From the IMG/VR virus record IMGVR_UViG_3300048592_000656: a stretch of 46,127 nucleotides of DNA, one strand, 5' to 3'. Positions 2,027 through 41,465 of this stretch are shown in pieces (position 1 is the stretch's first letter; each line of letters begins with the position of its first letter). The notes beneath the pieces are model-generated. The model did no database searches and was not told where the DNA came from. It was given only the letters and a program-made list of their open reading frames with translations. The stretch comes from a virus. The translations under genes and the position numbers were made by a program.

Positions 2027-2292
2027 GGTACACCCTAGAGGTCATCGTCCGAGAGGGTCCCATCGTAGGATTCAGGGACCCTTTCGGACAACCCCTCTGG
2101 GCGTACCACAAGATGTACGAAGTCTCAGTGTCAAATCAGTTCGCCTCATCCCACAACTTCTTTGAAGCTGTGGAGGAGGTCAATGAGTCGATTGCCAAAA
2201 TGACTCGACTCATGAACGATCTTGGGATAGTCGTACACTACAAAGTCCGAAGCTGTCATCACGTGTTTTTCCAGGAGTTCATCGCAGAATGA
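2014..2292 (+). CDS. Hypothetical protein (92 aa, GTG start)
   Basis: ORF track. Overlaps the neighbours by 13 nt and 4 nt, typical operon packing. No motif recognised. Confidence 0.45.
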   Translation: MEPLRYTLEVIVREGPIVGFRDPFGQPLWAYHKMYEVSVSNQFASSHNFFEAVEEVNESIAKMTRLMNDLGIVVHYKVRSCHHVFFQEFIAE

Positions 2293-4241
2293 GTTTGGAA
2301 CCCGATGTCGAGTTCTTGGAGTCTATCTTCCAAGAGCAGCCTGGAAAATACATCGCACTCTCGAGGAAGAAACAAGGCAGGTGGAAAGATCTTTTCTTCC
2401 CGAACCTAGAGGAAGCTGTCAACTGGATCAAGCGTCAATCAAATGACACAGACGTCTACTTTTGTCCGACCAAGCTCACTAGACGACGCCGGAGAAAGGA
2501 GTACGTCGCCCCGTCTAAGTTCCTGTGGGCTGATCTAGACGAAGCCGATCCGCGTGACTTGAAGCAAGCGATCAAGCCTACACATGCCTGGGAATCCAGC
2601 CCAGGGCGATTTCAGGCTCTATGGGAACTCGATAAGGCATATTCCCCACAGGAAATCGAGGGTCGCAACAAGGGGATTGCCGAAACTGTAGGCGCAGACA
2701 TTAGTGGTTGGGACTTGACACAGGTCCTTCGCGTCCCCGGAACATACAACAACAAATACCCCTCCCAGCCTCACATCGCCAAGATGTGGATCGATCACTC
2801 TGCTATTCGACCCCTCGTGAACTACCCAGATGCGTCGATAGCACCAATTCCAGACGACGAACAGGACACTTCGCTGGTCGCTAATCGCGCGTTCGTATCG
2901 CGTCTTTTGCGACCCTGGCGACATGCGATTCCGAAGAAGGTAGTCAGGTTGCTGCTGTCTGACAAGGCTACCACAGGTAAGCGATCAGACATGCTTTGGT
3001 ATATCGCTCACGAGTTGATTAAAGCTCGTGTGCCCGAGGATACAGCATTCCAGGCGATCAGGAACTCGGTATGGAACAAGTATCGAGGACGCCGGGATGA
3101 AATCCAAAGGCTTCAACATGAAATTGAAGAGGCTAGGAAAAGAGAGCGGCCTCAAGACGAAGCGATGGATCGCGAAAGACCGCTCTTTTCCATTGTAGAC
3201 CATCTTCAATTGATGGCTTCAGTTCACAGCAGGCCAAACTGGCTCATCGAGCAGTTTTGGTCTTACAACAGCCACGGGATCATCGCAGGCGAACCGAAGA
3301 CGTTCAAGTCTACGCTATGCCTCGATATGGCTATCTCTGTGGCATCGGGGACACCGCTCTTTGGCACATACAAGGTCACTGAGCCTGGGCCTGTTCTAGT
3401 CATCCAGAACGAGAACTCGGATTGGATCATGCAGGACCGCTCGAGGAAAATCTGTGCCACAAGAGGACTCGTTGGGGAAATGCATAGGAGAATCGATGAC
3501 GAGATCATCGTCCATGCACCTCCCAAGCTTCCCATTTACTACGTGAACCAACAAGGCTTTTCCTTCACCGATCCGATGCATACCGAATTCATCGAGGCTT
3601 GGTGTCAGGCGATCAAACCTAGGATGATCGTGTTCGATCCCTTGTATCTCATGTTCGACGGTGAGCTCAATTCCTCGAAAGACTTGAATCCCGTCCTTAG
3701 CTACCTCTTGTATCTCAAACAGGAATACAAGACAGCTATTGTCCTCATTCATCACTGGAACAAAGGTGGTCTCAGTAGTCGAGGTGGCCAACGAATGCTT
3801 GGATCTACAACCCTTCATGGTTGGACCGAATCGGCTTGGTACCTCAGCATCCGAGGCGTTGAGATCGAGAAGAAGGGCGAAGAGGAAGAAGATGAGCCTA
3901 CTGGAGTTCGACCCGCACTAGCCAAGCTAGTCATGGAACGCGAATTCCGTGGTTCTGGTATCTTCCCGAAGGTAGAGATGACTGTGGCAATGGGCGAATA
4001 TGGCAATGATCTTTATGCCGTCAACTTCGATTCCTATAAGCCACAGGCGCAACCGAAAGCATCTCGAGACGACCTCGAGGGCGATATCCTGAATCAGCTC
4101 CAGCTGAATGGAAAAGCTTCTCTTAAGAAGCTATCCGAACTTGTAGGAACTAGCCGTCGACTTGTAAGAGAGGTTACAGTGTCGATGGAGAAGAAGGGGA
4201 TATTGAAGAAGGTGGGCCAGACATACTCGGTGAAGGGGTGA
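2289..4241 (+). CDS. Bifunctional AEP primase-polymerase / RecA-like (RepA/AAA_25-type) helicase with a C-terminal winged helix
   Basis: N-terminal AEP motifs: WADLDEAD (DxD), SSPGRFQALW (sGxG.h-like), DLTQVLRVPGTYNNKY. Central P-loop IIAGEPKTFKSTLCLDMA, Walker B-like MIVFDPLYLMFDG and LIHHWNK. C-terminal LKKLSELVGTSRRLVREVTVSMEKKG. Confidence 0.85.
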   Translation: MSLEPDVEFLESIFQEQPGKYIALSRKKQGRWKDLFFPNLEEAVNWIKRQSNDTDVYFCPTKLTRRRRRKEYVAPSKFLWADLDEADPRDLKQAIKPTHAWESSPGRFQALWELDKAYSPQEIEGRNKGIAETVGADISGWDLTQVLRVPGTYNNKYPSQPHIAKMWIDHSAIRPLVNYPDASIAPIPDDEQDTSLVANRAFVSRLLRPWRHAIPKKVVRLLLSDKATTGKRSDMLWYIAHELIKARVPEDTAFQAIRNSVWNKYRGRRDEIQRLQHEIEEARKRERPQDEAMDRERPLFSIVDHLQLMASVHSRPNWLIEQFWSYNSHGIIAGEPKTFKSTLCLDMAISVASGTPLFGTYKVTEPGPVLVIQNENSDWIMQDRSRKICATRGLVGEMHRRIDDEIIVHAPPKLPIYYVNQQGFSFTDPMHTEFIEAWCQAIKPRMIVFDPLYLMFDGELNSSKDLNPVLSYLLYLKQEYKTAIVLIHHWNKGGLSSRGGQRMLGSTTLHGWTESAWYLSIRGVEIEKKGEEEEDEPTGVRPALAKLVMEREFRGSGIFPKVEMTVAMGEYGNDLYAVNFDSYKPQAQPKASRDDLEGDILNQLQLNGKASLKKLSELVGTSRRLVREVTVSMEKKGILKKVGQTYSVKG

Positions 4242-4280: not shown

Positions 4281-4506
4281 GCAATTGATGGGGGGCGAAA
4301 TGATGACACGGCTACGAAGGATGCGAGAAGAGCGAGGATGGACTCGAGCAGATTTAGCCCGTCGGGCTCGAGTCTCTCTTCGTACTCTATACACCGCTGA
4401 AAAGACGGGTAACATCTCACAAAGGAAGAAAGTCCGAATCGTCCGGGTCTTCGGACTTTCCTGGCAAGAAGTATCCGAGGTCTTTTCCATGGTGGAACAT
4501 GTTTAG
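4279..4506 (+). CDS. XRE-family helix-turn-helix regulator (75 aa; probable real start 4288 or 4300)
   Basis: MTRLRRMREERGWTRADLARRARVSLRTLYTAEKTGNIS is a classic XRE/Cro-CI HTH. The track start 4279 lies inside the TATAAT box; ATG 4288 fits a leaderless start. Confidence 0.75.
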   Translation: MQLMGGEMMTRLRRMREERGWTRADLARRARVSLRTLYTAEKTGNISQRKKVRIVRVFGLSWQEVSEVFSMVEHV

Positions 4507-4903
4507 AGTAGTCATACGATTCAAAGATGAATCTAGAATCATCTCCAGGTTCTACAAGAAGACCGATGCCGAGGTTTTCAAGAGGATCTGTGAAGAACAA
4601 ATCAAACCGCCGTTCCTGCACGAGATATACGTCATCAATGCCCTTCGATGCATACCTCGTCCAGCGGACTTTCCAATCAACCGAAGGGAAAAGACAAATC
4701 GTCTCTGGTGTACGATCTGTGGATCTTTCCAAGTGTTCAAGCCTTGGACCAAGGGGATTCGTCGATGTCCTCGATGTGGAATCTCAGACCAGGACTTCAA
4801 CATTAGGAAAGAGAACGGATTGTTCCTGGATGACATCGAGTCGTTCATCCTCACAAGCAACTTCAGGTTCAAGGAAAAGAGGAAAGGCGAGGAGAAGAAG
4901 TAA
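4499..4903 (+). CDS. Hypothetical zinc-ribbon protein (134 aa)
   Basis: ORF track. CTICGSF...CPRCG (CxxC-x18-CxxC) and a Lys/Glu-rich tail. Confidence 0.55.
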   Translation: MFRVVIRFKDESRIISRFYKKTDAEVFKRICEEQIKPPFLHEIYVINALRCIPRPADFPINRREKTNRLWCTICGSFQVFKPWTKGIRRCPRCGISDQDFNIRKENGLFLDDIESFILTSNFRFKEKRKGEEKK

Positions 4904-4978: not shown

Positions 4979-5497
4979 GTGATTATCGTTGAGGGAATGG
5001 ACAACTCGGGCAAGACCACACTCGTGAACTATCTCGCGGAGACTTTCAACCTACCCGTCATACACTCGCCGGGTCCAAAGGCCGATCTCAATTACTTCAT
5101 GGTCGAGGCCATGATGACTGAGCTGAAGAACGAGCAAGTCATCTATGACCGATTCCCGGCATTCAGTGAAAGGGTTTACGGCCCGATCCTCAGAGGCCGA
5201 GATCACATCCAAGAGCGATACTTGGTACTGCTCGCCGCTCTCAAACCATACATCATCCACTGTGACCCAGGTCTGCACACAGTCCTGAGCACGATCAAAG
5301 ATCGTGAACAAATGGAGGGTGTCGAGGATCAGGCAGAACGTCTTTATCATCGGTATGAGAAGATCATGTTTCCCGAGGGAAACAAGCTTTTCTCTTTCCA
5401 TGTGACTCGATACAACTGGCATCATGAGATGTCTTACTCCTACATCAAACACAACGTAGCCCATTACCTCCAAACCCGAAAGGACAACCCGTGGTAA
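4979..5497 (+). CDS. dNMP kinase / thymidylate-kinase-like P-loop protein (172 aa, GTG start)
   Basis: N-terminal MIIVEGMDNSGKTTLVNYL matches the IxxEGxDGsGKTT P-loop signature of dTMP/dNMP kinases. First gene of the cassette. Confidence 0.65.
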   Translation: MIIVEGMDNSGKTTLVNYLAETFNLPVIHSPGPKADLNYFMVEAMMTELKNEQVIYDRFPAFSERVYGPILRGRDHIQERYLVLLAALKPYIIHCDPGLHTVLSTIKDREQMEGVEDQAERLYHRYEKIMFPEGNKLFSFHVTRYNWHHEMSYSYIKHNVAHYLQTRKDNPW

Positions 5498-5919
5498 ACA
5501 TCAAAGACATCGACCAAATGGAAAAAGAAGAAGATCATGGCCTCAAAGACAAGCTGGAAATCCTCTGGTGGAGACAGGGCCAGCTTCGATCTCGGTATGC
5601 AGAGATCGAGATCAAGAATGGTTTCCACGTGCCTGCTGGCGTGGCAGATCTCGACAATGCCAAGGATCAGCATTTCCTCAAAGACTTCGCCTGGCGAATC
5701 ACGGAGGAACTCGGCGAGGCAATGAACTGCCTCAAGAACAAGCCGTGGAAGCAGACGCACATGGAGACCGACAAGGAACACTTCGTGGAGGAGGTGATCG
5801 ACGGCTTCCATTTCTACATCGAAATGATGCAATGGATCGGCATCACTCCCGACGACCTCGTCGATCTATATCTCAAGAAGTCTCGAGTCAACAAGTTCCG
5901 TCAACGGAGCGGGTACTGA
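5491..5919 (+). CDS. All-alpha NTP pyrophosphohydrolase (dimeric dUTPase / MazG-like family)
   Basis: ITEELGEAMNCLKNKPWK...EHFVEEVIDGFHFYIEMM...YLKKSRVNKFRQRSGY resembles the dimeric dUTPase (dUTPase_2) pattern: ExxE, KxWK, ExxD, and a C-terminal K..N..R..gY. GTG start with a GAAAGGA SD. Confidence 0.6.
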   Translation: MVNIKDIDQMEKEEDHGLKDKLEILWWRQGQLRSRYAEIEIKNGFHVPAGVADLDNAKDQHFLKDFAWRITEELGEAMNCLKNKPWKQTHMETDKEHFVEEVIDGFHFYIEMMQWIGITPDDLVDLYLKKSRVNKFRQRSGY

Positions 5920-6167
5920 TGAAGCTCAGGCAGAAGCGATATATCTACGAAATCATCTTCAAATCGAAGCAAGGAGAAGTCACAAGAGCCGAGTTCGGTC
6001 CATGCCTCAACCCACCGAAGAGACTCAGCGTCAATGAAGACGGAGTCATTCGGATCGGGGTCTTTTCACACTGGTTCAAGGTGATCGACACAGACCGATA
6101 CTACGCGGTCTACAACGAAGAAGAAAGGGCACAAGTTGCTGACGATTCAGTCCAAGACGCTCTATAG
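5919..6167 (+). CDS. Hypothetical protein (82 aa) inside the nucleotide cassette
   Basis: Internal ATG of track ORF 5568..6167 forming an ATGA-type overlap (TGATG at 5917-5921) with the upstream gene. MKLRQKRYIYEIIFKSK...; no motif recognised. Confidence 0.5.
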   Translation: MKLRQKRYIYEIIFKSKQGEVTRAEFGPCLNPPKRLSVNEDGVIRIGVFSHWFKVIDTDRYYAVYNEEERAQVADDSVQDAL

Positions 6168-6957
6168 GTGCTGGAAAGACCTCAACCGAGGCTTCCTGAA
6201 CCCGGAGCTCGACAACACGGGAATGCTCATTCCCAACCGAGACTTCTCGAGGGTCATTCCACACGTTCGTCTAGTGGCCGAAGAGGGGTTCGGCCTTCCG
6301 TCGAACCTCAACAAGCTGCCTCAGTTTTTCTCCAACTATGATCGGCGAATGACCCTTCTGGGAAATCGCTACATCGATCCCGAACTGTGGCAGGAAGGCG
6401 TCGAACGGCTCGTGGCTCGACGAAGTCGAATGGCACGGACCAATCCGCTCAGCTTCGTCATTCCGTTCCACAGGAGGGCAACCAGCGAGCGAAAGGTACC
6501 GGCTGGTGGTGGGTGCCTGCAGACCATCACGTTCATCTGGGTGAACGGCCGATGGGAACTTCACGTCGCACTTCGAGCTTCCGAGATCACCGCAAGACTG
6601 ATCGCCGACATGCTGTTCGTGAAGCGATCCGTCAATGCCATCGTCGAGGAAGTCAACTTCAAGAAGTGGGAGCCCAAGACTCGGATCGTGTGGGACATCG
6701 CTCTGGCTTCCCAGATGAAGTACTTGGTACCCCTCTACGTCCTGTTCGCCGAAGGAGAGGGTCAAGTCATCAACGAGTACACTTCGGGAAAGCCTGAAGG
6801 TATCTGGCAAAACATTATCTGGGAGCACTTCTGGGATACGTTCATCTATCCCGAACGGATCACGTGGGCACAGCGCCGAAAGTGGTCCGAGAAGTTTCTG
6901 GAAATGACCAGCGCACCCTGGGCCAAGCTGGCCAAGGCAGGAAGGGACTTCAAGTAA
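6136..6957 (+). CDS. Divergent thymidylate-synthase-fold (ThyA-like) paralogue 1 (TTG start; alternative ATG 6223)
   Basis: Core GGGCLQTITFIWVNGRWELHVALRASE reproduces the ThyA active-site spacing C-x5-F-x4-G-x8-R (E. coli [23 protein letters not shown]). The N-terminal half is unlike canonical ThyA. Confidence 0.45.
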   Translation: MLTIQSKTLYRCWKDLNRGFLNPELDNTGMLIPNRDFSRVIPHVRLVAEEGFGLPSNLNKLPQFFSNYDRRMTLLGNRYIDPELWQEGVERLVARRSRMARTNPLSFVIPFHRRATSERKVPAGGGCLQTITFIWVNGRWELHVALRASEITARLIADMLFVKRSVNAIVEEVNFKKWEPKTRIVWDIALASQMKYLVPLYVLFAEGEGQVINEYTSGKPEGIWQNIIWEHFWDTFIYPERITWAQRRKWSEKFLEMTSAPWAKLAKAGRDFK

Positions 6958-7655
6958 TGCGAATCTACAAGACTTTCATCGAAGCAGTGAGCGAGATGCG
7001 ACGGGACCTCAAGGAAATGGGTATCGAGGTACATACCCAGACATACCAAGACAAGCACATCGGTCTCGACCCGAAGATGGCAACCCTCGAGCTCCAGAAC
7101 TACATCTTCACAGTCACGTACCCCAGCCTGGCCGACCTCGAGCCGGTTCAGCCCTGGGCTGATCTGGAATTCGAGGAGAGGGTTCGCCCTCCGCACCCTC
7201 GTGGCGTGAACCCGGGTGAAGCCTACAAGGCTCGAATCGACGTCTGGGAGCAATTCCTCGAGCGCGATGGCTGCTTCGGGTACACTTACTCGGATCGAAT
7301 CAACAACAACGATGGAGCCAGCCAAGTCGATCAAATCGTCAGGGCAATTCAAATCGATCCGAGCTCGAGACAGCTCTTCATGTCGATCTGGGAGCCCGAG
7401 GACCTTTTCAACATCGGAGGAGCTCGTCGAGTCCCGTGCACGCTGGGCTATCACTTCCAGGTTCGACGAGGTCGGCTCAACATCACGTACCTGCAACGAT
7501 CCGCTGACATGGCCACCCACCTTCAGAACGATCTCTATCTGGCTGCCCGGATGCAAGCTCACGTCGCTGAACTGACTGGGTATGAGGTAGGTACCTATAC
7601 CCACTGGTTCGGCTCCCTCCATGTCTTCAAGAAGGACGTCGAGGGCGTATTCTAG
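6957..7655 (+). CDS. ThyA-family enzyme, deoxypyrimidine-monophosphate hydroxymethylase/methylase-like (232 aa)
   Basis: Internal ATG of ORF 6864..7655 (TAATG overlap at 6955-6959). DPSSRQLFMSIWEPEDL, RRVPCTLGYHFQVRRGRLNITYLQRSADMATHLQNDLYL and GSLHVF align with the ThyA motifs sRR.i.s.WnP.d, PC...F.V..G.L....QRS.D......N and gd.H.Y. Confidence 0.8.
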   Translation: MRIYKTFIEAVSEMRRDLKEMGIEVHTQTYQDKHIGLDPKMATLELQNYIFTVTYPSLADLEPVQPWADLEFEERVRPPHPRGVNPGEAYKARIDVWEQFLERDGCFGYTYSDRINNNDGASQVDQIVRAIQIDPSSRQLFMSIWEPEDLFNIGGARRVPCTLGYHFQVRRGRLNITYLQRSADMATHLQNDLYLAARMQAHVAELTGYEVGTYTHWFGSLHVFKKDVEGVF

Positions 7656-7656
7656 C

Positions 7657-8136
7657 ATGGACGCAGTAGATCCGACCTTGGCGAGTCTTTTGGCAGTCGA
7701 CACCCAATGGGATCGATTGCAAAGAGATGAAATGTTCCTCGCCATCGCCAAGGTCGTTTCTCTGCGAGGAACCTGCAGAAGGGCTCAAGTGGGTGCGGTG
7801 ATCGTCAAAGAGAACCGAATCATCTCCACAGGCTACAATGGGTCTGCCCCGGGTATGCCCCATTGCTATGAAGATGGTTGTCTCGAGGACGTGAATGGTG
7901 GGTGCACTCGGACGGTACATGCTGAAGCCAACTCGATTCTGTGGGCAGCGAGGTTCGGGGTATCGGTTGAAGACTCGGTGATGTATTCAACTCATTCCCC
8001 TTGTCTCTACTGTGCAAAGATGATCGTGGGGGCTGGCATCGTCAAGGTCACCTATCTGCACCCATACCGAGACCCCGCTGGGCTTGACTACATGCACAAC
8101 TGTGGGCTACGATACTGTCACCTTCAGGTTGGGTGA
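7657..8136 (+). CDS. dCMP deaminase (CMP/dCMP-type zinc deaminase)
   Basis: VHAEANSILWAA (HAE) and HSPCLYCAKMI (PCxxC) zinc-binding motifs. Start taken at ATG 7657, 1 nt after the upstream stop. Confidence 0.85.
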   Translation: MDAVDPTLASLLAVDTQWDRLQRDEMFLAIAKVVSLRGTCRRAQVGAVIVKENRIISTGYNGSAPGMPHCYEDGCLEDVNGGCTRTVHAEANSILWAARFGVSVEDSVMYSTHSPCLYCAKMIVGAGIVKVTYLHPYRDPAGLDYMHNCGLRYCHLQVG

Positions 8137-8162: not shown

Positions 8163-8175
8163 CCTGAGATATAAT
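8163..8175 (+). promoter_or_regulatory. Promoter-like 13-mer CCTGAGATATAAT (-10 TATAAT 8170-8175)
   Basis: Intergenic and identical to the 13-mer at 13436-13448. ATG 8187 is 11 nt after the -10. TTGGGT lies 18 nt upstream, and a T5CGT run is at 8138-8145. Confidence 0.6.
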
Positions 8176-8186
8176 TGGAGAATCGT

Positions 8187-10799
8187 ATGGCAACAGTAAA
8201 CGGCGATCCTCGATGCACGTTATGTCCCCTTCACAAGACTGCACAGATCGTGTGTCTTATGGGTCGGGGGCCTCTCCCTTGCAAGGTGATGATCGTAGGC
8301 GAGGCACCTGGTCGAAGGGAGGATGACGTTGGTAAGCCCTTTCAAGGTGCTGCTGGGCGCGTTTTGGACGAGGAGCTTTCGCTCAACGATGTATCGAGGA
8401 ATGACGTTTACATCACCAACACAGCCCGATGTAGACCACCCAGGAATCGAACTCCCAAGGCCGTAGAGATTCGTGAATGCGCCATCTGGATGGAGAAGGA
8501 GTTCAAGGAAGTTCAACCCAAGTTCGTTCTCTTGATGGGTCGAACTGCTTTGAAGACCGTGCCATTCTGGAAAAAAGCGAGCATCACGAAGATCCGAGGC
8601 CAGATCTACGAGCACGATGGCGTCTATTACATGGCTACGTTCCACCCTGCAGCCTGTCTGCCTGGAAGAGATACTGGCCGTGATAAGAAGCGCCCGGCAT
8701 TCCGAATCGACTTGAGTACCTTCTTCAAGTTGGTACGAGACGGGAAACCCCAGGAAACTGAGGGATTGAACGTCCAGATAGTTCGGAATGCCGACACTTT
8801 CAACGAGATGATCGACGACCTTCGAGAATGTCCCGATCCCTCGTATGACTTGGAAACCATGGGCCTTCGACCTCACGTGCCAAAGAAAGACATAGTCCTG
8901 GCTGGCTTTGGTACAGAAAAAGCTCAATGGGTCGTACCCATCAATTATCCCACAGCCGACGGAGGCAACAAGGCCCCGTTCAAGACTCGTCGGTCTAGGA
9001 AAATGGCTTGGGAATTGATCGGCGAAGCAATCCACGGTAAAAAGCTCATTACCCACAATGGCAAGTTCGACGCTTTGTGGGCATATACGAGATATGGCGT
9101 GATGCCGTATATTGGCTTCGACACGATGCTTGCTCACTATGTTCTAGATGAGAATTCACCGCACGCTCTCAAGTACCTTGGCCCTCTCTACTTTGGTATC
9201 CATGATTGGTCATTGGATATGGAAGGCGAATGGTGGCTCAGGTATACGCTCAAGGAATCGTCGAAGTATCTAGCTCAGGATCTTTTCTACACTCGAAAGT
9301 TGAAAGGCATCTTGTATGCTGAGCTAAGAAAAGACCCCGCGCTACTCCGATTCTACCGAACAATCCTTCTGCCTGCTTTCAGGCTCTATGCTCGAGTCGA
9401 AAAGGAAGGTATGTTTCTCAATATGGCCAACTACGAGGCGGCCAAATCTCACGCAATGAATCTTTGGGGTAGGGCATGCCTCGAGGTCAATAGAATCGAC
9501 CCCTCCATCAATTGGGGATCGCCGAAGCAAGTAGCCAAAAAGCTATATGAGGAGTTTGGCTTTCCCATCATCAAGACGACAAAGAAGGGAGCTCCGTCGT
9601 CAGATGAGGCCACACTTACCATCTTGGCTGAACCCCCCGACAAACCCATCCATATGTCTATCACTCGGCCAAATGAAAATCCAAAGATATTCGGCTCGAG
9701 AAAGACTATCGAATGGTGGTCCGGATACAAACACGAGATTCCACAAGCTCTTTTGAATCATCGGGCAGCGAAGAAAATGAAGGAGTTTGTGGATTCGTGG
9801 GAAGAACACCAGCAAGGTGGGCTAATTCACCCGTCTTACAAATTCCTCACCGTCACGGGTCGACTCTCTTGTGAAGGTCCTAACATTCAGCAAACGCCTC
9901 GAGAAAAAATCTTGAGGCAATGCTTTGATGCCCCCTTTCCGTTCATCTTCGTCGAGGCCGACCATTCACAGGTCGAACTCCGAGGCGTAGCGATGTTCGC
10001 TCCCGAGCCTACGATGAAAGCCATCTTCATCGCAGGCGAAGATATTCACAGGATGACTGCTCGAGACATCATTGGGATTGCTAACCCTACAGCCGAAGAC
10101 CGAAAGAAAGCAAAGGCAGTCAACTTTGGTCTCATCTACAGGATGGGCTGGAAAAAGCTACGAATCTACGCTCGTACCAAGTACGGAGTTGAGCTTTCTC
10201 CCGGGGAAGCGAAGAAGATCGTCAAGAATTACTTCCTGAAGTACAATCGACTCCGGTATTACTACGAGAAGCAAGAACGAGTAGCTCGGATGAATGGCTA
10301 TGTCCGTCATCCGTTGGGTCGCGTTCGCCACCTTCCCAATATCTTTTCTGAAGACGAACAAGAGCAGAACGAGGCAATTCGACTTGCCATCAATTCCCCG
10401 GTTCAGGGGTTCGCTTCAGATTACAATCTAGCGGGCATGGTTGACGTCGACCTTGAATTCAATCCCACTTGGGATGGTCCGCTACGAATCGTAGGAACGG
10501 TTCACGACTCGGGGCTGATGTGGGTCCATGCTCTTCATCTCCGTCGAATCCTCCCGAGGGTGAAGGAGATCATGGAGCATCCGCCCCGAGTCAAGAACAA
10601 AATCGGATTTACTCCTACGGTGCCTTGGAAGGTCGATTTCAAGATCGGCCCTTGGGGCGCTGGCAAGGAAATCGATCCGATGGCATGGGAAAATTGGGAA
10701 GTCTTCGTCAAAGACATGAAGGAGTCTGGTCAATGGGAACGGTACAAGCAGGCGAGGGAAGCGAAGAAGATCGACTCGTCGTTTCCCTCAGTCGGATAA
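8187..10799 (+). CDS. polA: Family-4 uracil-DNA-glycosylase domain fused to a family A DNA polymerase with 3'-5' exonuclease
   Basis: UDG4: CTLCPL, GEAPGRREDDVGKPFQGAAGRVLDE, ARCRPPRNRTP, FHPAA. Exo: YDLETMGL, HNGKFD, YLAQDLFY. Pol: ADHSQVELRG (motif A), KAKAVNFGLIYRMG (motif B), GTVHDSG (motif C). ATG 8187 is preferred over the track TTG at 8175. Confidence 0.9.
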   Translation: MATVNGDPRCTLCPLHKTAQIVCLMGRGPLPCKVMIVGEAPGRREDDVGKPFQGAAGRVLDEELSLNDVSRNDVYITNTARCRPPRNRTPKAVEIRECAIWMEKEFKEVQPKFVLLMGRTALKTVPFWKKASITKIRGQIYEHDGVYYMATFHPAACLPGRDTGRDKKRPAFRIDLSTFFKLVRDGKPQETEGLNVQIVRNADTFNEMIDDLRECPDPSYDLETMGLRPHVPKKDIVLAGFGTEKAQWVVPINYPTADGGNKAPFKTRRSRKMAWELIGEAIHGKKLITHNGKFDALWAYTRYGVMPYIGFDTMLAHYVLDENSPHALKYLGPLYFGIHDWSLDMEGEWWLRYTLKESSKYLAQDLFYTRKLKGILYAELRKDPALLRFYRTILLPAFRLYARVEKEGMFLNMANYEAAKSHAMNLWGRACLEVNRIDPSINWGSPKQVAKKLYEEFGFPIIKTTKKGAPSSDEATLTILAEPPDKPIHMSITRPNENPKIFGSRKTIEWWSGYKHEIPQALLNHRAAKKMKEFVDSWEEHQQGGLIHPSYKFLTVTGRLSCEGPNIQQTPREKILRQCFDAPFPFIFVEADHSQVELRGVAMFAPEPTMKAIFIAGEDIHRMTARDIIGIANPTAEDRKKAKAVNFGLIYRMGWKKLRIYARTKYGVELSPGEAKKIVKNYFLKYNRLRYYYEKQERVARMNGYVRHPLGRVRHLPNIFSEDEQEQNEAIRLAINSPVQGFASDYNLAGMVDVDLEFNPTWDGPLRIVGTVHDSGLMWVHALHLRRILPRVKEIMEHPPRVKNKIGFTPTVPWKVDFKIGPWGAGKEIDPMAWENWEVFVKDMKESGQWERYKQAREAKKIDSSFPSVG

Positions 10800-11737
10800 A
10801 GCTATTCCGACAATGCACGATGGCCCATCATTACAGGTACGTCGAGAAACTCGAGCCTCGGCAAAAGCCAATCTACATGGAGCTGGGTCATCTAGTCCAT
10901 GAGCTGCTCGAGTGGGCGGCAAAGGGCAAGGACTGGGAAGCTCGATTGACCGAAGTGGAAGAAGATCGAGGCAATTTGTTCAAGCTCGAGTGGGAACATT
11001 ACGGAGACGTAATCAAAGATGCCCACAGCATCGTTCGCCGTTACCATAGAAGGTGGAAGCACGAGCCCCTCGAGTTTCTCTTGGCGGAGCCGGACTTCGA
11101 ACCCATTCCTTTCACAGACTACGAGGGCGAGACCATTTGGATCGTAGTAAAGCCCGACGGTCTTGTCAAGAGCGTTGACGGGGATCAATGGGTCCTCGAG
11201 CGAAAGACCGTACGCAAGTTCGGAGACGTCGAACAGCGAGTCTTCGATCTACAAACCAGTCTCTACATCTGGGGCCTCGACGTCCTGGGTTACTCGTGGT
11301 CGACGGGAGTTCTGTGGGACGAGATTCGAGCGAAGCGACCCAAAATCCCTGCACTCACGAAGAAGGGCTCTTTGAGTCGACGCAAGAGCATCGACACCGA
11401 TTGGCCGACCTATCTTCGAGCCATCAAAAAGCATGGCCTTGACCCTAGCGACTATCAAGATATGAAGTCGGCCATCACAGCAGACCCTGAGAAGTTCTAT
11501 CGGCGAATCCCGATCACCACAAGGCCTCCGATTGTCAAGCAAATCGTGGTCGAGGCCAAGCGTACCGCGAAGCAAATTGCTCGCCGCGACAAACCTGTGA
11601 TGGAGCTGGGGTTCCAGTGCAAGTCTTGCACATTCAATCGAATCTGCCGGACTCGGTTGATGGGCGGGGATGTCAATTTCGTCAAGAAGGTGGAATTCAC
11701 CAGAAGGGAAAGGCGCAATGCTAAAAAGGAAGCGTAA
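10733..11737 (+). CDS. PD-(D/E)XK exonuclease, Cas4/RecB-like, with Fe-S cysteines
   Basis: VKPDGLV...WVLERKTV (D..E.K), QTSLYIW, N-terminal FRQC plus C-terminal CKSCTFNRIC (C...CxxCx5C). ATG 10733 is chosen because the conserved N-terminal Cys lies upstream of the next Met. This gives a 67-nt overlap with polA. Confidence 0.65.
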   Translation: MGTVQAGEGSEEDRLVVSLSRIKLFRQCTMAHHYRYVEKLEPRQKPIYMELGHLVHELLEWAAKGKDWEARLTEVEEDRGNLFKLEWEHYGDVIKDAHSIVRRYHRRWKHEPLEFLLAEPDFEPIPFTDYEGETIWIVVKPDGLVKSVDGDQWVLERKTVRKFGDVEQRVFDLQTSLYIWGLDVLGYSWSTGVLWDEIRAKRPKIPALTKKGSLSRRKSIDTDWPTYLRAIKKHGLDPSDYQDMKSAITADPEKFYRRIPITTRPPIVKQIVVEAKRTAKQIARRDKPVMELGFQCKSCTFNRICRTRLMGGDVNFVKKVEFTRRERRNAKKEA

Positions 11738-21863: not shown

Positions 21864-23489
21864 TTATCCCCAGATTAGAAGGGTTGTATTTCCGCTGGCG
21901 ACGTTTTCATCCACGCCAACGACGATGAAATCCCTCGTAGAAACATTCCAACGAGGCCAATTGATGTTGATCGTGATACCGGGGACCACGATCCACGAGT
22001 TGTTTTTGACCGTAACCTTGTAGAAATGTCTCAATTCATCAAGAAGAGCCATCCTACTAGTAGCTTCGTCTTGGGCATCTGCTGATTCAGTCAGAAGGCT
22101 AAACATCTCGTACAAGGTTGCCTTCAAATGCGCAGTACGGATGGAAGCATTCTCTTGTTCTACTTTTTGATACTCTTTGGATACCGCATCTCGATGCGGG
22201 GGAATTACTCCATCTGCCAAACCATCACGATCTTGAACCATCCAAGCTCGGTTGTAGTTCAAGACCAACTTCCAGATGGGATAATGAGTATCTTCCCTTT
22301 GAATCGCGAGGACATCGCCTTCGTGCACAGTCAGTGCAGGAGTGGCGAACTCGAACCTTGCCACAGAGATGATGCCTTCGCGGTCCACCCTCCAGTAGCC
22401 GAAGACTGAGTGTACGACCTGATCGATGAGATCGCGGTATGTGACTGTGTTGGTGGAAGTGTAGAAACCAATCACATACGGGAAATTGGTATCGAGGGTG
22501 TCAGCAGAGACAGTGTCAATGAGTGCGCTACTGATACCCGCTCGAGTCAAGAGGCGGACAAATAGCTCGCCAGCGAGTTGACTATATCCGCCATCATTGC
22601 TACCCTTGACGTCGCCAGTCACTGCGCCAATGGGAGGAGCGCCTAGACGAACGATCCCTCGAGCGAGATCGGTGATGTATTGCCCTCCAACAGGAGTCCA
22701 ATCGAAGACGTCGGCGATGGCCAAATCCGTGATGTCGTTGGCTCCGGAATTGGCTTTGACAAGTTCGTTACCCTTGTCGTAGATTGCATCTACCGCTTCT
22801 GCTGGTCCATCGTTGAACTGATAGACGTCGAACCCATCGTTGATGAGAACGAGTTCGACGTTCCTGGCTGCGCCCCAGGTCAGGGGTTTTAGGGTACCCG
22901 TTAGTTGGGGGTTCGCGTCGTAACTCTCACCGACACCATCCCCAGCGTATGTGTTCTCCTGAATGGGAACGGCCAGTCGATCCAGTTGGTCCTCGACTTC
23001 GAACTCAATGAACTGTTCGTTCCAATTCACGTCTTTCACGAATCCAGTGTAGACTCGTTGGAATTGCTCGAACTCGTAGTGAGGTTCCCCGATGTAGATG
23101 TTGATGGCACGACCATCCCAATAGTAGTCCGTGAGATTGTCGTGTTCTCCGTCACCCCATCCCAACGTGATTGTACCCAGAGAACTAGCTTCGGTCTGTT
23201 CTGTGGGCAGGTTTCGCTGGAAAAGTCGATACTTCACAGACAGGGTATTGACGAGCTTGGCAGGGAACAGGAATCCCGAGAAAATGCATTTCCGATTCTG
23301 TTGAGCAGGGTCTGAGAAACCTACTCGGATGATTGCCTCTTCTACAGGGTCCCAGGGAAAGGCTTCTACGAGGTATACGATATCTCTGTTGAGAAGTGTT
23401 GAAGGGTCGAACGGGGCACTTTCTGCCCCAGCCTCTCCACCACCTACGCCAAAAGGCGGGATACCAAACGGGTCAATTCCGATTGTCAT
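21864..23489 (-). CDS. Tail tip protein (distal tail/hub candidate, 541 aa)
   Basis: Immediately downstream of the tape measure with a 4-nt overlap. No motif recognised. N-terminal PFGIPPFG. Confidence 0.55.
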   Translation of the reverse strand: MTIGIDPFGIPPFGVGGGEAGAESAPFDPSTLLNRDIVYLVEAFPWDPVEEAIIRVGFSDPAQQNRKCIFSGFLFPAKLVNTLSVKYRLFQRNLPTEQTEASSLGTITLGWGDGEHDNLTDYYWDGRAINIYIGEPHYEFEQFQRVYTGFVKDVNWNEQFIEFEVEDQLDRLAVPIQENTYAGDGVGESYDANPQLTGTLKPLTWGAARNVELVLINDGFDVYQFNDGPAEAVDAIYDKGNELVKANSGANDITDLAIADVFDWTPVGGQYITDLARGIVRLGAPPIGAVTGDVKGSNDGGYSQLAGELFVRLLTRAGISSALIDTVSADTLDTNFPYVIGFYTSTNTVTYRDLIDQVVHSVFGYWRVDREGIISVARFEFATPALTVHEGDVLAIQREDTHYPIWKLVLNYNRAWMVQDRDGLADGVIPPHRDAVSKEYQKVEQENASIRTAHLKATLYEMFSLLTESADAQDEATSRMALLDELRHFYKVTVKNNSWIVVPGITININWPRWNVSTRDFIVVGVDENVASGNTTLLIWG

Positions 23490-26400
23490 TTGGTAGCCAG
23501 CTCCCTACGGAGGAGACGAATCTCGTGGATCAGCTTGTCCATTGTAGCCGTGGAATCCGAGTTGCCTCGAGTAATCTCTTGACCGACGTCCTTGAGCCCA
23601 CGCAGCATTGCCATCTGGTCAGATTGCCTCGAGATCGAAACCCTTTCTCCACCAGAAGCCTTGAACTTGACCACTCGAGTGTCGGGGCCCGTATTGCCCG
23701 GGATGACGAAAGAACCACCTGTGGCAAACGCCGGAAGCTGCGGTTCCGATACATCCTGGGCAGTAGACCGAGCTTGTAGAAGAGCAAGGACCTGGTTGAA
23801 GACTGCAAAGAACTGGGGCCCGCTGGCATACAGATTCTCTGCCGCATTCAAGAGATTCGTAGCTGCCTCGCTGATCTGAGTCAATGCCTCGGCACGAAGT
23901 TCCGGCGTAGCTGCTGTCTGCGCATCCAGATTCAGCTTCATGAGCTCGGTGAAAGCATTGTCAAAGACGGTCTGTGCAGACAACGGAGACGACGAACCTT
24001 GGGTAAGCTCCTTGATGAGATCTTTGATGCTGTCTCGAGCGGCCTTGAAGGAGTTGACTCCAGATTGATTGTATTCTTCGATGATCCGAAGCCGTTCGAG
24101 CCCATACAGCTTCTCGATTTCCACAGTCGACAGGCCGAGTGTGGTCGCGTTCTTGATCTGCTCGTCTCGCCACTCGTCGAGGGCCTTGAGCGAAGCAGCC
24201 AACGGGTCTTCGAGCTCCAGAATACGATCCGAAATCGTTTTCTGGAAGTTGGTCACGATCTGGGCCCGTTGTAGACCAAACAGATACTCGATCCGAGTAA
24301 TCTCGAGACCAAGGGCCTGGGCGTTCTTGATTTGTTCTTCTCTGGCCTTGTCGAGTTCGTTGAGTTGGCTCTGGAGAGGATTCTCGATCTTCAGGATCTC
24401 GACTTCAGTGTTGTCTGTGAACTCGTCCTTCAGGCGTTGCAAAGACTGTGCACGAGCCGCATCGATCCTGGACTGTTCTTCTCCGTAAACCTTCGCAGCC
24501 TCAGAAAGCTCTTTGAATCGGTCATCCAACTCTTTGAGAGCCGCTTCAGCTTCGCCCAAGGGACCAGCCTCGAGCTCTTCCAAAGCCTCGATGAACGACT
24601 TCCTTTCCTCCAAAAAGCTTGCAGCACCTCCGGTCAAGGCCTCGAGGTAGGCGGCATTCGGAGTGTTGTTATTCGCGGCAGCGGCTTGGCGCTCGATGCT
24701 TACAAGCTGTTCTCCAAGACCCAAGGCCGCGAACTGTTGGGCCAGTCGAGACTGAACCACGACCGCAATGTCATTTTCCGAGAAAGACTTGCCACGAGTG
24801 TTGACCTTGGGGCCCAAAGTCCCCTCGATGGCGGCCCTTACTCGTTCAATCTCGGCATCAGTCAAGCTCTTGGCGATTGCGGCATCTGAAGCGCCTAGGA
24901 AATTAGCCAATTGCTGGGAAAAGTCTTGACCGACCTGAGTACCTTTGGTGCCCAAAATCCCCACTCGACCAAAGGGACCTTCCGAGAATGCTCCATCTTC
25001 GAAGATGTTGGCGGGGGTACCAACGCCTCCGCTATAGATTTGGAATTCCTGATGATCGGGTCGATTCTTCGGGATCAGCGAGCCAGCGGCAACGCCAAGG
25101 AATGCTCCAATGGCCGCACCGATCGGACCGGCGAAAGTTCCCAAAGAGGCACCCATCAAAGCGCCACCTGCGATGCCTCCACCAATTCCACCAACCAAGC
25201 CAAGGCCACCGTCGATCAACCCATTGCCCGAACCCAACCCGAGGGCCTGAGCGCCAAAGGCTCCCAGAGCCCCACCAATGCCTGCCAACGGTGAGAAGGC
25301 CGAGATTACTCCCAACTGCTGTGCACCCGAGAGGGTAATGCCAAGCCCGTTGAGGCCTCGAAGTGCAAGACCGGCGCCGTATCCCCCGAAGGTTCCCACA
25401 GAGGTCAGGCCCGAGAGGCCGTTTACGAGCTTGCTGCCCAGACTCAGAATGTTCTGGAAAAAGCTCGGCGAAGGTGCGGTGCTTGAAGCTCCACCCGACA
25501 CATTCCCGAAGGTACCGCCAGTACCAATGGCTGCCGAGGAACCTGCACCGAAGAGTGCAGAAAGAATGCCTCCGCCTGCGTTGCCTCCTCCGAGGATGGA
25601 AGTAAGTCCAGCAGTACCAGAGAAGCTTTGCAGGATGGGTCTGAAGATGAGGAGAGACGCGATTTCAGCCGCAAGTCTCTTGAAGATCGAGAAGACTTCA
25701 CCCGCTAAGTCCTTGAAGCTGTCGATGCCACCATCAAAGACCTTCTCGAAAGTGTCGGCGAACAGCCCCTGGACCGAACGAGCCGCTTCCTTGAAAGGTT
25801 CGAGAAGCAAATCCCTTTCGGCTTCTCGTCGCCTTTCAGTTTCAGCTTCTGCATCCTTCTGGGCCTTCTTTACCTTTGTCAATTCTTGCTGAAGGTCGAA
25901 GAGTTTTCCAGCCTTCTCTTCGATGATTCGGACCTCTTCGGCCTCGAGAGGCTGCTTTCGCTCGAGGGCCTTTGCCCTTGCTTCCACAAGGGCATTGTCG
26001 ATGGCTCGAGCTCGAGCCAAAGCCGTAACTGCAGCTTCCCCCTGACGAGCAGCATTGACGTCCTGTTGTGCCTCAACGACCGATTGATTGAGGGCCCCGA
26101 TGTATCCAATGAGCTCGATGGTAGCCTGGCCGCGTTCCTTTGCAGCCTGTGCAGCGGCCTTTTCCGCTTCACGTTCGGTCTTTGCCAATTCTTTGGATGC
26201 ACCAGAGGCACGATCCATCTCTTCCTTGGCAATGACCAAAAGCTCGTTGTATCGGGCCTGGGTGATGTAGCCCTCTTTCAGGCCCCGATCGAGTTCCAGG
26301 ACTGTGGCATTGTATTCTTCATGTGCCTTCTTGACTTTGTCAAGATCGGACTCGAATTCACTGAAGGCTTTCCGAGCACGTTCAGTCTTCGTAGCTTCAT

Positions 26401-39599: not shown

Positions 39600-39867
39600 C
39601 GCGTTAGTGCGATCGAACGAGTGCAGTATCGAACGCGCGCGAACGAAACGCAAGCGCATAACGCGCGAATTGTTTTATACTCGCGCGTTTTATAAATTCC
39701 AACGTCGCGAACGCGCGAACCGCAATCCATCGTCGTCCGTTCATTTCACGTCCGCTCACGTCATCTCACGTCATCTCATCTCACCTCATCCGCGCGCGCT
39801 CGAAACCTGACCTGACCGGACTAGATCGGGCGCTGGGGCCTGACTTGACCAGACCTCGAGTGAGGTG

Positions 39868-40034
39868 GTTCTCAGGCATGAGTCAGGCGCTCCATCGCGA
39901 TCATGCGAGCCCGTTCTCGGTCTCTCTAGATCTGGAGAGATAAAGTTCTCAGGCGTGGGATGGTTCTCAGTAGCAGGTTCTCGGCGTGGTTCTCAGGCGT
40001 GGTATAGTTCTCAGGCCTGCCAGGCTTTGAGAAC
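39868..40034 (+). repeat. Iteron cluster 1: seven direct GTTCTC(A/G)G copies plus one inverted copy
   Basis: GTTCTC starts at 39868, 39913, 39945, 39963, 39977, 39989 and 40007 (extended consensus GGTTCTCAGGCGTGG). Inverted GAGAAC at 40029-40034. ORF-free. Confidence 0.85.
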
Positions 40035-40045
40035 ATGAACCTGGC

Positions 40046-40064
40046 GGCCTGACTAGACCTGAAG
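40046..40064 (+). repeat. 19-bp direct repeat GGCCTGACTAGACCTGAAG, copy 1
   Basis: Identical to 40170-40188. The pair brackets the 17-bp tandem array. Confidence 0.9.
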
Positions 40065-40078
40065 TAAAGACCGTACCT

Positions 40079-40143
40079 GAAAGTAGCCCGAACTAGAAAG
40101 TAGCCCGAACTTGAAAGTAGCCCGAACTTGAAAGTAGCCCGAG
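40079..40143 (+). repeat. Tandem repeat, 17 bp x ~4 (GAAAGTAGCCCGAACTT)
   Basis: Units at 40079-40095, 40096-40112 and 40113-40129, plus a partial unit at 40130-40143. Copies 2 and 3 are identical and copy 1 differs at its last base. Confidence 0.95.
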
Positions 40144-40169
40144 GCTGAGGTATCAAGCCTAGGTACCGT

Positions 40170-40188
40170 GGCCTGACTAGACCTGAAG
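40170..40188 (+). repeat. 19-bp direct repeat GGCCTGACTAGACCTGAAG, copy 2
   Basis: Identical to 40046-40064. Confidence 0.9.
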
Positions 40189-40204
40189 AGAAGAACGAAT
40201 CGAC

Positions 40205-40240
40205 AATCAATCCCCCGCGTGGATCGCGGGGAGATTGATT
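40205..40240 (-). terminator. Hairpin terminator candidate after the 40240..40629 gene
   Basis: aatcaatcccccgcg / tggat / cgcggggagattgatt: a ~15-bp stem with one bulge that abuts the stop codon. On the minus strand it is followed by the moderately U-rich gtcgattcgttcttctcttc. Confidence 0.5.
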
Positions 40241-40629
40241 TACGGCGCCGGAATGATGCGTTCGGCCGGAACCCCGAAGTCGTTGATCAGTTCCTGAGTG
40301 GATTCGTCGTCGTCGGAGATGATGAGGGCATCAGAGTAGTTGATGACGTAGGAGGTCAGTTTCTTGACGAGATCGAAATCGATTATCTCCTGAGCCTGAG
40401 ATATTTCGTATTCGTGGATGAATACGCCAGATTCCCCCCGGAAGACGGATCTCCAGATCGCGTAGAGGAAGTCCTGACAGTTGGGATAATAGTCGAACCA
40501 GGTGTCGTCGCCTGATACGTCGACGGATCCGGATTGTCTCTGAGCGTCTTGATACGTCTTGACGATTTCGTTCGAGAGGGCCTGATTCTCCTCGGATGAA
40601 GTGAAATCGAATCGTTCGTGATCGAGCAT
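40240..40629 (-). CDS. Acidic hypothetical protein (129 aa)
   Basis: ATG 40629 with an AGGAGA SD; the track ORF extends to 40713. MLDHERFDFTSSEENQ...DDDESTQELINDFG. Asp/Glu-rich, no motif. Confidence 0.6.
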   Translation of the reverse strand: MLDHERFDFTSSEENQALSNEIVKTYQDAQRQSGSVDVSGDDTWFDYYPNCQDFLYAIWRSVFRGESGVFIHEYEISQAQEIIDFDLVKKLTSYVINYSDALIISDDDESTQELINDFGVPAERIIPAP

Positions 40630-40677
40630 GATATGTCTCCTGATTTCGTTTTCGTCGCGTTCGTCGCGACGACGATA

Positions 40678-40690
40678 ACGATATCTCAAG
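40678..40690 (-). promoter_or_regulatory. Promoter-like motif CTTGAGATATCGT (minus strand)
   Basis: 49 nt upstream of ATG 40629, followed by the CG-rich leader tatcgtcgtcgcgacgaacgcgacg. Same class as 41432-41444 and 41934-41946. Confidence 0.5.
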
Positions 40691-40753
40691 TGGAAACGCC
40701 TGTCGAATTCCACCTGCCCGGGCCTGAACCATCATGCCTGCCCAGTACCGAGG

Positions 40754-40835
40754 CCTGATACCTACTGGACTCTAAGGCCTGATACCTACTGGACTCTAAG
40801 GTGATACCAAACCTGATACCTACTGGACTCTAAGG
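40754..40835 (+). repeat. 24-bp repeat CCTGATACCTACTGGACTCTAAGG x3
   Basis: Identical copies at 40754-40777, 40778-40801 and 40812-40835. A 10-nt spacer tgataccaaa separates copies 2 and 3, and a partial 4th copy (cctgat) starts at 40836. Confidence 0.95.
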
Positions 40836-40911
40836 CCTGATCTCGCAAACGCAACCTGACCTGACCAGACTAGCTCATATGCCACAGGATATCCCCCTGA
40901 GGGGACCCTGA

Positions 40912-41133
40912 TTAGAACCGGTGGCGGAGAGATTCGTATACTGCCTGAATTCGCTGGCTGATTCCCTGGCAGAAATCGTCGTCGTCGATCTCATCCAGGG
41001 TCTCATCGATGAGTTCGTTGAGATTTGCGTGGGCAGTTCTTAGACCGTTCTCGGTCCAATCATCCCCGACGTGGAGGAGTTGCTCGAGAGCGGAAGTGCA
41101 GTGTTCGACGAATCGCTTGTTGGCTGAGTCCAT
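40912..41133 (-). CDS. Small acidic helical protein (73 aa)
   Basis: ATG 41133 with a GGAGGG SD, 4 nt after the upstream stop. MDSANKRFVEH...ETLDEIDDDDF. Confidence 0.55.
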   Translation of the reverse strand: MDSANKRFVEHCTSALEQLLHVGDDWTENGLRTAHANLNELIDETLDEIDDDDFCQGISQRIQAVYESLRHRF

Positions 41134-41137
41134 TCTG

Positions 41138-41389
41138 TTACCCTCCAATGATGAAGTTGGATTGTGTGGTGAGGATGTGTACGGTAGCATCCTCAGATCC
41201 CGGATCGATCAGAGCGTTGACGGTGCCCTGATCGTTGAATTCGATCCTGAGGAGATACATTTCAGAGTCGGGGGACCTGAATATCTCGTATGAGGAGATT
41301 CCCCATTCGGGATTGAGCTTGACGGGATGAGATTCAGTCCAGTACGCGATACGTTCGATCGCTTGCTGGATCGTATCGTTTCGTTCCAT
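41138..41389 (-). CDS. Hypothetical protein (83 aa), first gene of a leftward two-gene operon
   Basis: ORF track. GGGGG SD-like sequence upstream, and the promoter-like motif 43 nt upstream. Confidence 0.6.
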   Translation of the reverse strand: MERNDTIQQAIERIAYWTESHPVKLNPEWGISSYEIFRSPDSEMYLLRIEFNDQGTVNALIDPGSEDATVHILTTQSNFIIGG

Positions 41390-41431
41390 GATGAGACCCC
41401 CTTCGCGCGTCGTTCGTTCGACGCGATACGA

Positions 41432-41444
41432 ACGATATCTCAGG
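41432..41444 (-). promoter_or_regulatory. Promoter-like motif CCTGAGATATCGT (minus strand)
   Basis: The minus strand reads caCCTGAGATATCGTtcgtatcgcgtcgaacgaacgacgcg. Its downstream end is 43 nt from ATG 41389. Confidence 0.55.
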
Positions 41445-41465
41445 TGTAATCAAAAGTAAATATCC

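Follow-up and report, generated by a model that had tools for sequence, protein, structure and literature searches.

What does a phage make with a gene cassette in which two proteins of the thymidylate synthase (ThyA) fold stand side by side with a nucleotide kinase, a nucleoside triphosphate (NTP) pyrophosphatase and a deaminase? This question is raised by IMG/VR virus record IMGVR_UViG_3300048592_000656, a 46-kb phage contig from a Joint Genome Institute (JGI) metagenome. The whole stretch of 46,127 nucleotides (nt) is referred to here as the window, and the cassette consists of six co-oriented + strand open reading frames (ORFs), g1 to g6, at 4979-8136. The original prediction for this locus had recognized the same six genes and proposed that they supply a non-canonical pyrimidine deoxynucleoside triphosphate (dNTP) by a T4-like or SPO1-like hydroxymethyl-pyrimidine pathway. 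The NTP pyrophosphatase, the ThyA homologues, the kinase and the deaminase support the non-canonical dNTP logic, and the cassette is probably a pre-replicative cytosine-replacement module, which would draw on the nucleotide pool as the systems of T4 and Xp12 do. The gene arrangement is far beyond chance, as the same order is seen again in dozens of independent contigs.

The gene g5 (6957..7655, + strand) encodes a short ThyA homologue of 232 amino acids (aa) that falls in a clade resembling gp46 of Mycobacterium phage Muddy. It matches PF00303 (1.3e-22) and lies far below all NCBIfam thymidylate synthase (TS) equivalog cut-offs, the best score being 69.7 bits against a required 174.6. In an alignment with E. 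coli ThyA, T4 gp42, RB69 gp48 and Xp12 TS, all taken from annotated records, the protein retains the equivalents of Cys146, Tyr94, Arg126, Arg166, Ser167 and Asp169, with the catalytic Cys146 and Arg166 represented by Cys161 and Arg181. In comparison to ThyA it carries Asp for Asn177, Arg for Leu143, Thr for His147, His for Gly173, Gln for Arg127 and Phe for Tyr209, and it is missing the C-terminal ~45 residues, the tail that seals the folate site. Position 177 is occupied by D192, which is Asp in all 16 clade members tabulated and invariant in a 46-sequence g5 alignment. The clade also has invariant active-site residues of its own: Arg three residues before the catalytic Cys (Cys-3; Arg158 in g5), His at 173 and Gln at 127. 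The AlphaFold2 model of g5 has a predicted local distance difference test (pLDDT) score of 94, and Foldseek places MilA, B. subtilis ThyA and AfhB all near 1e-16; the methylase, hydroxymethylase and hydroxylase subfamilies are not told apart by this search. On the basis of its active-site residues, g5 is predicted to act on C5 of deoxycytidine monophosphate (dCMP).

Directly upstream, g4 (6136..6957, + strand) encodes a highly divergent ThyA-fold protein of 273 aa. No match to it was found in Pfam, PHROG, NCBIfam or PDB sequences, tblastn against cultured phages returned nothing, and BLASTP detects no similarity between g4 and g5; its homology is therefore drawn from structure prediction and profiles. 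The family is sparsely populated, as 5.8e9 proteins yielded just 17 homologues and 1.84e9 representatives yielded 57 clusters, and the AlphaFold2 model built from the homologues found has a pLDDT of 89.3 and a predicted template-modelling (pTM) score of 0.88. At E<=1e-3 the Foldseek matches of this model in the PDB belong to the ThyA superfamily only, led by the HY126 dCMP hydroxylase AfhB (9e-6) and followed by T4 dCH, MilA and ThyA. Alignment of g4 with the ThyA alignment by hhalign pairs C127 with Cys146, R147 with Arg166, E150 with Asp169 and D158 with Asn177, while the Cys-3 position holds Gly or Ser. Among 64 divergent members of the g4 superfamily, Y79, C127, R147 and D158 are each present in 64/64 and E150 in 63/64; as this Cys/Arg/Glu/Asp/Tyr set is conserved across the superfamily, catalysis rather than decay is indicated, and the g4 protein seems to be a functional enzyme. 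When a hidden Markov model (HMM) of g4 was run against the Xp12, T4 and RB69 regions, the ThyA homologue was the best but sub-significant match in each. The two tandem ThyA-fold paralogues of the original prediction are thus recovered, g5 through PF00303 and g4 through AlphaFold2 and Foldseek; structure prediction, which had been suggested as a check, gives the ThyA fold for both.

The substrate of the pair is indicated by a single position. The Asn177Asp change switches ThyA from deoxyuridine monophosphate (dUMP) to dCMP (PMC8670742, PMC13326640), and Asp occupies the Asn177 position in both proteins, as D192 in g5 and D158 in g4. Since both carry this Asp, both look cytosine-directed, as does the pathway; T4-like or Xp12-like logic therefore fits, and the SPO1-type route to hydroxymethyluracil (hmU), whose dUMP hydroxymethylase has Asn at 177, is disfavoured. 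Of the two models named originally, the T4-like one stands in its cytosine logic. A thymidine hypermodification scheme with a 5-HMUDK-type DNA kinase was considered as well and rejected, as no aGPT-Pplase or post-replicative enzyme is present and both ThyA-fold proteins are of the cytosine type.

The same residues bear on the most conventional account of the gene set, ordinary thymidylate synthesis or salvage, in which g5 would be a plain TS fed by dCMP deaminase and deoxyuridine triphosphatase (dUTPase), and g4 unrelated or degenerate. Relatives of g5 do go by the name 'thymidylate synthase' in databases, and those of g2 by 'dUTPase'; ThyA, dCMP deaminase, dUTPase and Tmk also make up the canonical set for thymidine triphosphate (dTTP). 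Asp in place of Asn at 177 in the clade members compared, the missing C-terminal tail, the scores far below the equivalog cut-offs and the catalytic-type residues of g4, invariant or nearly so over the 64 sequences, make this account very improbable.

The enzymes encoded around the pair are consistent with a role in supplying and activating a cytosine nucleotide. The second gene, g2 (5491..5919, + strand; 142 aa), encodes an all-alpha NTP pyrophosphatase of the dimeric-dUTPase/T4 gp56 family, matching PF08761 (dUTPase_2) at 1.6e-11 and 45.2 bits against a gathering cut-off of 22.9, and phrog_12184 at 5e-35. The T4 dCTPase/dUTPase gp56 is also a member of PF08761 and is similar to g2 in pairwise BLASTP (1e-7). 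This agrees with the earlier call of a dimeric-dUTPase-type NTP pyrophosphatase, and g2 is proposed from this kinship to be a dCTPase/dUTPase that would supply dCMP and remove deoxycytidine triphosphate (dCTP).

The first gene, g1 (4979..5497, + strand; 172 aa), encodes a Tmk-like P-loop nucleotide kinase. It matches the 'thymidylate kinase' family phrog_761 (3.8e-21) and carries the P-loop GMDNSGKTT, a DRF motif and the MIIVEGMDNSGKTT motif quoted in the original prediction; Pfam and NCBIfam Tmk models match at the P-loop only and below their cut-offs (TIGR00041, 23.4 bits against 83.25). The protein shares 30% identity with Muddy gp49 (2e-16) and weak similarity (1e-5) with RB69 gp45, the 'nucleotide kinase' adjoining the RB69 5-hydroxycytosine (5hoC) synthase, and Tmk-like kinases also adjoin the 5hoC synthases of DLP3 and RL38J1. 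It had been described as a dNMP/dTMP-kinase-like P-loop protein with the logic of T4 gp1; the P-loop kinase assignment stands, but the protein is Tmk-like and not T4-gp1-like. It is proposed to phosphorylate modified dCMP and/or thymidine monophosphate (dTMP), its candidate substrates, to the diphosphate.

The last gene, g6 (7657..8136, + strand; 159 aa), encodes a zinc-dependent dCMP deaminase with HAE and PCLYC zinc-binding motifs, matching PF00383 (1e-22; 80.3 bits, cut-off 25) and phrog_174 (3e-54). Its PDB sequence matches include the S. mutans dCMP deaminase 2hvv (2.9e-31) and T4 cd 1vq2 (2.9e-20). The deaminase family and motifs given originally are upheld; the start is probably ATG 7657, just past the g5 stop, and not ATG 7621 (171 aa), as the Pfam domain of the long form starts only at residue 35 and the homologues have lengths of 139-150 aa. 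Immediately 3' on the + strand lies a DNA polymerase I (PolA; 8175-10799) with an N-terminal family-4-type uracil-DNA glycosylase (UDG) domain, recognizable by GEAPG and FHPAA motifs, and a 3'-5' exonuclease (PF03167, 1.8e-28; PF01612, 2e-14; PF00476, 7.5e-67). Four metagenomic relatives were inspected (L001, L009, L010 and L011), and in each the cassette is again followed by a UDG-exo-PolA fusion, which suggests that uracil is actively kept out of phage DNA. PolA is presumed to incorporate the modified dNTP.

Taken together, the following pathway can be proposed. The gp56-family enzyme g2 would hydrolyse dCTP, and probably deoxyuridine triphosphate (dUTP) too, to the monophosphate, removing the canonical triphosphate and supplying dCMP. 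The conserved Cys of g5 would then attack C6 of dCMP and a one-carbon substituent would be put on C5, the product most likely being 5-methyl- or 5-hydroxymethyl-dCMP with little to choose between them. In the third step g1 would phosphorylate the 5-substituted dCMP, with host nucleoside diphosphate (NDP) kinase completing the triphosphate, and the adjoining UDG-exo-PolA would incorporate it. The deaminase g6 may act on dCMP or on a modified (deoxy)cytidine nucleotide, feeding the thymidine side of the pool. As for g4, it would be another active ThyA-fold enzyme directed at cytosine, responsible for an additional or alternative C5 transformation. A metagenomic study by New England Biolabs (NEB), MetaGPA, found neighbourhoods of ThyA(177Asp), dCMP deaminase, NTP pyrophosphatase and PolA to be strongly enriched in modified-cytosine contigs, and some of the linked deaminases turn 5-methyl-deoxycytidine (5-methyl-dC) nucleotides into T (bioRxiv 10.1101/2024.12.05.627091).

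The pathway logic is a familiar one. The T4 hydroxymethylcytosine (hmC) pathway of gp56, gp42, gp1 and cd has the same logic and the same four enzyme roles, and in addition to the likeness of g2 to gp56, g6 is homologous to cd, while gp42 and g5 both have Asp at 177, Thr at 147 and no C-terminal tail. T4 differs in having a gp1-like kinase, in its glucosyltransferases, which have no equivalent here, and in having no counterpart of g4. No glycosyltransferase, methyltransferase, TET/JBP, carbamoyltransferase, aGPT-Pplase, radical S-adenosylmethionine (SAM) enzyme or pyridoxal phosphate (PLP) enzyme was detected by Pfam among 45 other ORFs of the window, a scan that did not include the 1,754-aa ORF at 23486-28750 or a small number of short ones. 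Within this scope the original observation that no glycosyltransferase or other decorating enzyme is encoded holds, and as none is found in the scanned ORFs any modification is probably simple and pre-replicative. The 5-methylcytosine (5mC) systems of the Xp12, PaMx74 and mSCD-B5 type likewise have no decorating enzymes, and there, as here, an Asp177 ThyA homologue directly adjoins a dCMP-family deaminase in a PolA phage; in both, this deaminase may divert modified C towards T.

How widely the module is conserved was assessed from 80 related loci fetched from IMG/VR, 77 of which have upstream DNA. The protein collection contains 193 relatives of g5 at E<=1e-5, and 384 stretches with one were confirmed in IMG/VR. 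Around them, g2 relatives are found at 76/80 loci, g1 relatives at 74/80, the g4 superfamily at 68/80 (68/77 with upstream DNA), PolA at 48/80 and g6 relatives at 45/80, the last mostly directly upstream of PolA. Where g4 is present, g1 relatives stand upstream of g2 and the order g1, g2, g4, g5 is kept throughout with the sole exception of L073; g4 and g5 adjoin each other and often overlap. A different arrangement was observed in L075-L079, L081 and L082, on IMG/VR contigs of up to 248 kb, some of jumbo-phage size: the kinase and NTPase follow the g5-type ThyA instead of preceding it, and there is no g4-type gene within 6 kb.

The module also occurs in cultured phages, namely Mycobacterium phage Muddy (gp49 to gp45), Gordonia phage CherryonLim (gp56 to gp47), Pseudomonas phage PMBT14 and Clostridium perfringens phage P21 (P21_00024 to P21_00027), the last of which also carries tdk. 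In Muddy the genes gp49-gp45 are annotated as thymidylate kinase, dUTPase, hypothetical, thymidylate synthase and hypothetical, and in all four phages the gene between the NTPase and the 'thymidylate synthase' is hypothetical. A g4 HMM built without the cultured-phage proteins assigns these four hypothetical proteins to the g4 superfamily (7e-6 to 1e-21, Z=1e6), and in BFVD the PMBT14 protein ranks among the best structural matches of g4. It was the broader HMM that decided this assignment, as probabilities were low when hhalign compared the narrow g4 alignment with Muddy gp47 and P21_00026 as single sequences. A DNA search with the cassette against 50,697 phage records gave only short matches of ~70%, in the NTPase gene, which pointed to Muddy-type phages. 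The four cultured relatives are like the cassette in gene order and in the g5 signature residues but differ in that g5 identity is only 28-48%; no DNA modification has been described for them, nor is any function annotated for their g4-type gene.

These distributions bear on a second way of reading the gene set without virion modification, in which the cassette would be a dUMP-free route to dTTP: dCTP to dCMP (g2), to 5-methyl-dCMP (g5), to dTMP (g6) and to thymidine diphosphate (dTDP; g1), with g1 a genuine thymidylate kinase. Such a route would hold dUTP low, consistent with the UDG domain fused to PolA, and it accords with the Tmk-like kinase and the adjoining deaminase. Xp12 is thought to obtain dTTP through deamination of 5-methyl-dC nucleotides (bioRxiv 10.1101/2024.12.05.627091). 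The route is nonetheless improbable: 35/80 loci have g1, g2 and g5 with no deaminase within 6 kb, P21 has its tdk, the same logic goes with full C replacement in Xp12 and the MetaGPA contigs, and the route does not account for g4. In L010 a flavin-dependent thymidylate synthase, ThyX (PF02511), is encoded at 10600-11259 just 3' of PolA. This relative has a short ThyA with a g4-type partner as well, but need not rely on that ThyA for dTMP. In view of this ThyX and of the 35 loci without a nearby deaminase, dTMP synthesis is unlikely to be the core function of the module.

If the cassette is a cytosine-replacement module, the chemistry performed on C5 is then the harder question. The hydroxymethyl product put forward originally is not established by the residues of g5. 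T4-type dCMP hydroxymethylases require Asp or Glu at Cys-3, for water activation, together with Ser/Thr-x-Tyr, and a gp42 D145N mutant makes no 5-hydroxymethyl-dCMP (PMC6400193). At these positions gp42 has Asp and Ser94-x-Tyr96, whereas g5 has Arg and Tyr109-Thr-Tyr111. The flavin-dependent 5-hydroxy-dCMP synthases RB69 gp48, DLP3 gp80 and HY126 AfhB are marked by Asp169Asn together with Asn177Asp (PMC13326640). Among the reference enzymes RB69 gp48 is the closest to g5 by sequence (26%), with a similarly short C-terminus and Phe at 209, and a Tmk-like kinase is encoded nearby in the RB69/HY126-type systems as it is in the cassette. The diagnostic Asp169Asn is absent here, however: position 169 is Asp184 in g5, where RB69 gp48 has Asn in the same alignment, and Glu in g4. 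Furthermore, g5 retains Trp80 where gp48 does not, and no arabinose or glycosyl-transfer genes were found among the scanned window ORFs. The Xp12-type dCMP C5-methyltransferases are Asp177 ThyA homologues that produce 5mdCMP by hydride transfer, with release of dihydrofolate. At 289 aa the Xp12 TS is not shortened as g5 is: it retains the C-terminal tail, Arg127 and Gly173, and has a dihydrofolate reductase (DHFR) neighbour; it shares only 20% identity with g5, and no g4-type gene is present in the 50 kb of Xp12 examined.

Several points weigh against the proposed cytosine-replacement module. The protein g5 meets no published product signature, lacking Asp/Glu at Cys-3 and Ser/Thr-x-Tyr of the hydroxymethylases, the Asp169Asn of the 5-hydroxylases, and the C-terminal tail or DHFR partner of the Xp12 methylase. 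The folate dependence of g5 is uncertain, as the Glu58 equivalent is not aligned in its clade. To these are added that the role of g4 is left unexplained, that nine related loci, several on jumbo-size contigs, have g5, g1 and g2 without g4 within 6 kb, and that the deaminase is missing within 6 kb in ~44% of related loci. Neither nucleoside nor activity data for this phage or its cultured relatives, nor any on the DNA chemistry of the latter, came up in literature searches on dCMP hydroxylase, on modification in Muddy and on those relatives.

A rival explanation is that g4 and g5, acting in sequence or as a complex, make an undescribed substituent at C5, other than methyl, hydroxymethyl or hydroxyl. 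For example, the Cys could re-form the exocyclic methylene from 5-hydroxymethyl-dCMP for another nucleophile to trap, or the chemistry could be folate-independent; the clade-invariant Arg at Cys-3 and His173 might, as a matter of speculation, form an alternative water-activating or cosubstrate-binding apparatus. In its favour are the failure of g5 to match any published signature together with the invariant residues of its own, the separate ThyA-fold family of g4 with its conserved Cys/Arg/Glu/Asp/Tyr, and the adjoining, often overlapping position of the two genes. The top structural match of g4, AfhB, is a flavin-dependent dCMP hydroxylase, and the ThyA fold has recently been shown to host such flavin-dependent, non-folate hydroxylation besides folate chemistry (PMC13326640), though Foldseek cannot separate ThyA subfamilies. 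On the other hand, 5/7 deaminase-linked 177Asp ThyA homologues tested in MetaGPA just made 5mdCMP (bioRxiv 10.1101/2024.12.05.627091), no cosubstrate-supplying enzyme is encoded nearby, and g5 carries the same signature residues in the loci without g4, where it therefore seems self-sufficient. An undescribed substituent is a doubtful alternative, and it is equally doubtful that the pair makes a cytosine derivative new to DNA with g4 founding a new catalytic branch of the superfamily. An obligate g4-g5 heterodimer, which was also considered, is weakened by the same g4-free loci with their unchanged g5 signature.

A pre-replicative cytosine-replacement module acting on the nucleotide pool is thus retained as the preferred explanation, with the product graded by these comparisons. 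The virion DNA may contain 5mC or 5-hydroxymethylcytosine (5hmC), each a tentative call of similar weight; another or new C5 derivative is somewhat less likely than either, and unmodified virion DNA is unlikely, coming last of the four. A 5-methyl-dC product of the Xp12 kind or an undescribed one is at least as likely as 5hmC.

The remaining gene of the cassette, g3 (5919..6167, + strand), is the 82-aa ORF listed originally without a function, and it indeed has no match in Pfam, PHROG or NCBIfam, nor a relative in any of the 80 related loci. The JGI record lists it as a gene, but it is probably outside the conserved module and looks like an insertion, specific to this lineage, that separates the NTPase gene from g4. 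Other relatives hold different small ORFs at this place. The overlaps described earlier are all read in the sequence, with GTG 5491 within g1 (end 5497), TGATG at 5917-5921 and TAATG at 6955-6959. The start of g4 is TTG 6136, 32 nt inside g3, and is well supported as homologue alignments begin at residue 2.

In the window as a whole, the + strand carries the early/replication block and the - strand the structural genes. Upstream of the cassette on the + strand is a RepB-type primase with an AAA_25 helicase domain (2289-4241), and further + strand replication genes encode a PD-(D/E)XK nuclease, a Sak4-like ATPase and a helicase. Just 5' of the cassette, a 134-aa ORF (4499-4903) has a CxxC...CxxC zinc-ribbon-like motif, its sole match being phrog_28450 (unknown function, 5e-8). 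Iterated motifs are abundant at 39800-41600, between the divergent gene blocks: GGCCTGAC-type 28-mers in 5 copies, the 17-nt tandem AGCCCGAACTTGAAAGT in 4-5 copies at 40068-40152, and the 24-nt CCTGATACCTACTGGACTCTAAGG in 3 copies at 40754-40841; such repeats are possible iterons of an origin or of a regulatory region. The whole contig (1-46127) was also searched for tRNA and tmRNA genes, and none was found.

The pathway follows a well-known logic but is built here on a ThyA clade that falls outside every characterised signature, together with an unannotated ThyA-fold family. The clade of g5 indicates that the published residue signatures for predicting 5mC, 5hmC and 5hoC do not cover all clades, and g4 adds to the ThyA superfamily an unannotated branch with intact predicted catalytic residues. 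Muddy is a therapeutic mycobacteriophage in clinical use, and as cultured relatives such as this one exist, the question is directly testable. If the virion DNA is modified, the module would mark a large, mostly uncultured group of PolA siphophages, and several cultured Mycobacterium, Gordonia, Pseudomonas and Clostridium phages would carry non-canonical cytosine too, which would bear on restriction and CRISPR evasion, on phage sequencing and engineering, and on phage therapy. Should the product of g4 and g5 be new to DNA, it would be present in hundreds of uncultured phages as well as in cultured ones including Muddy.

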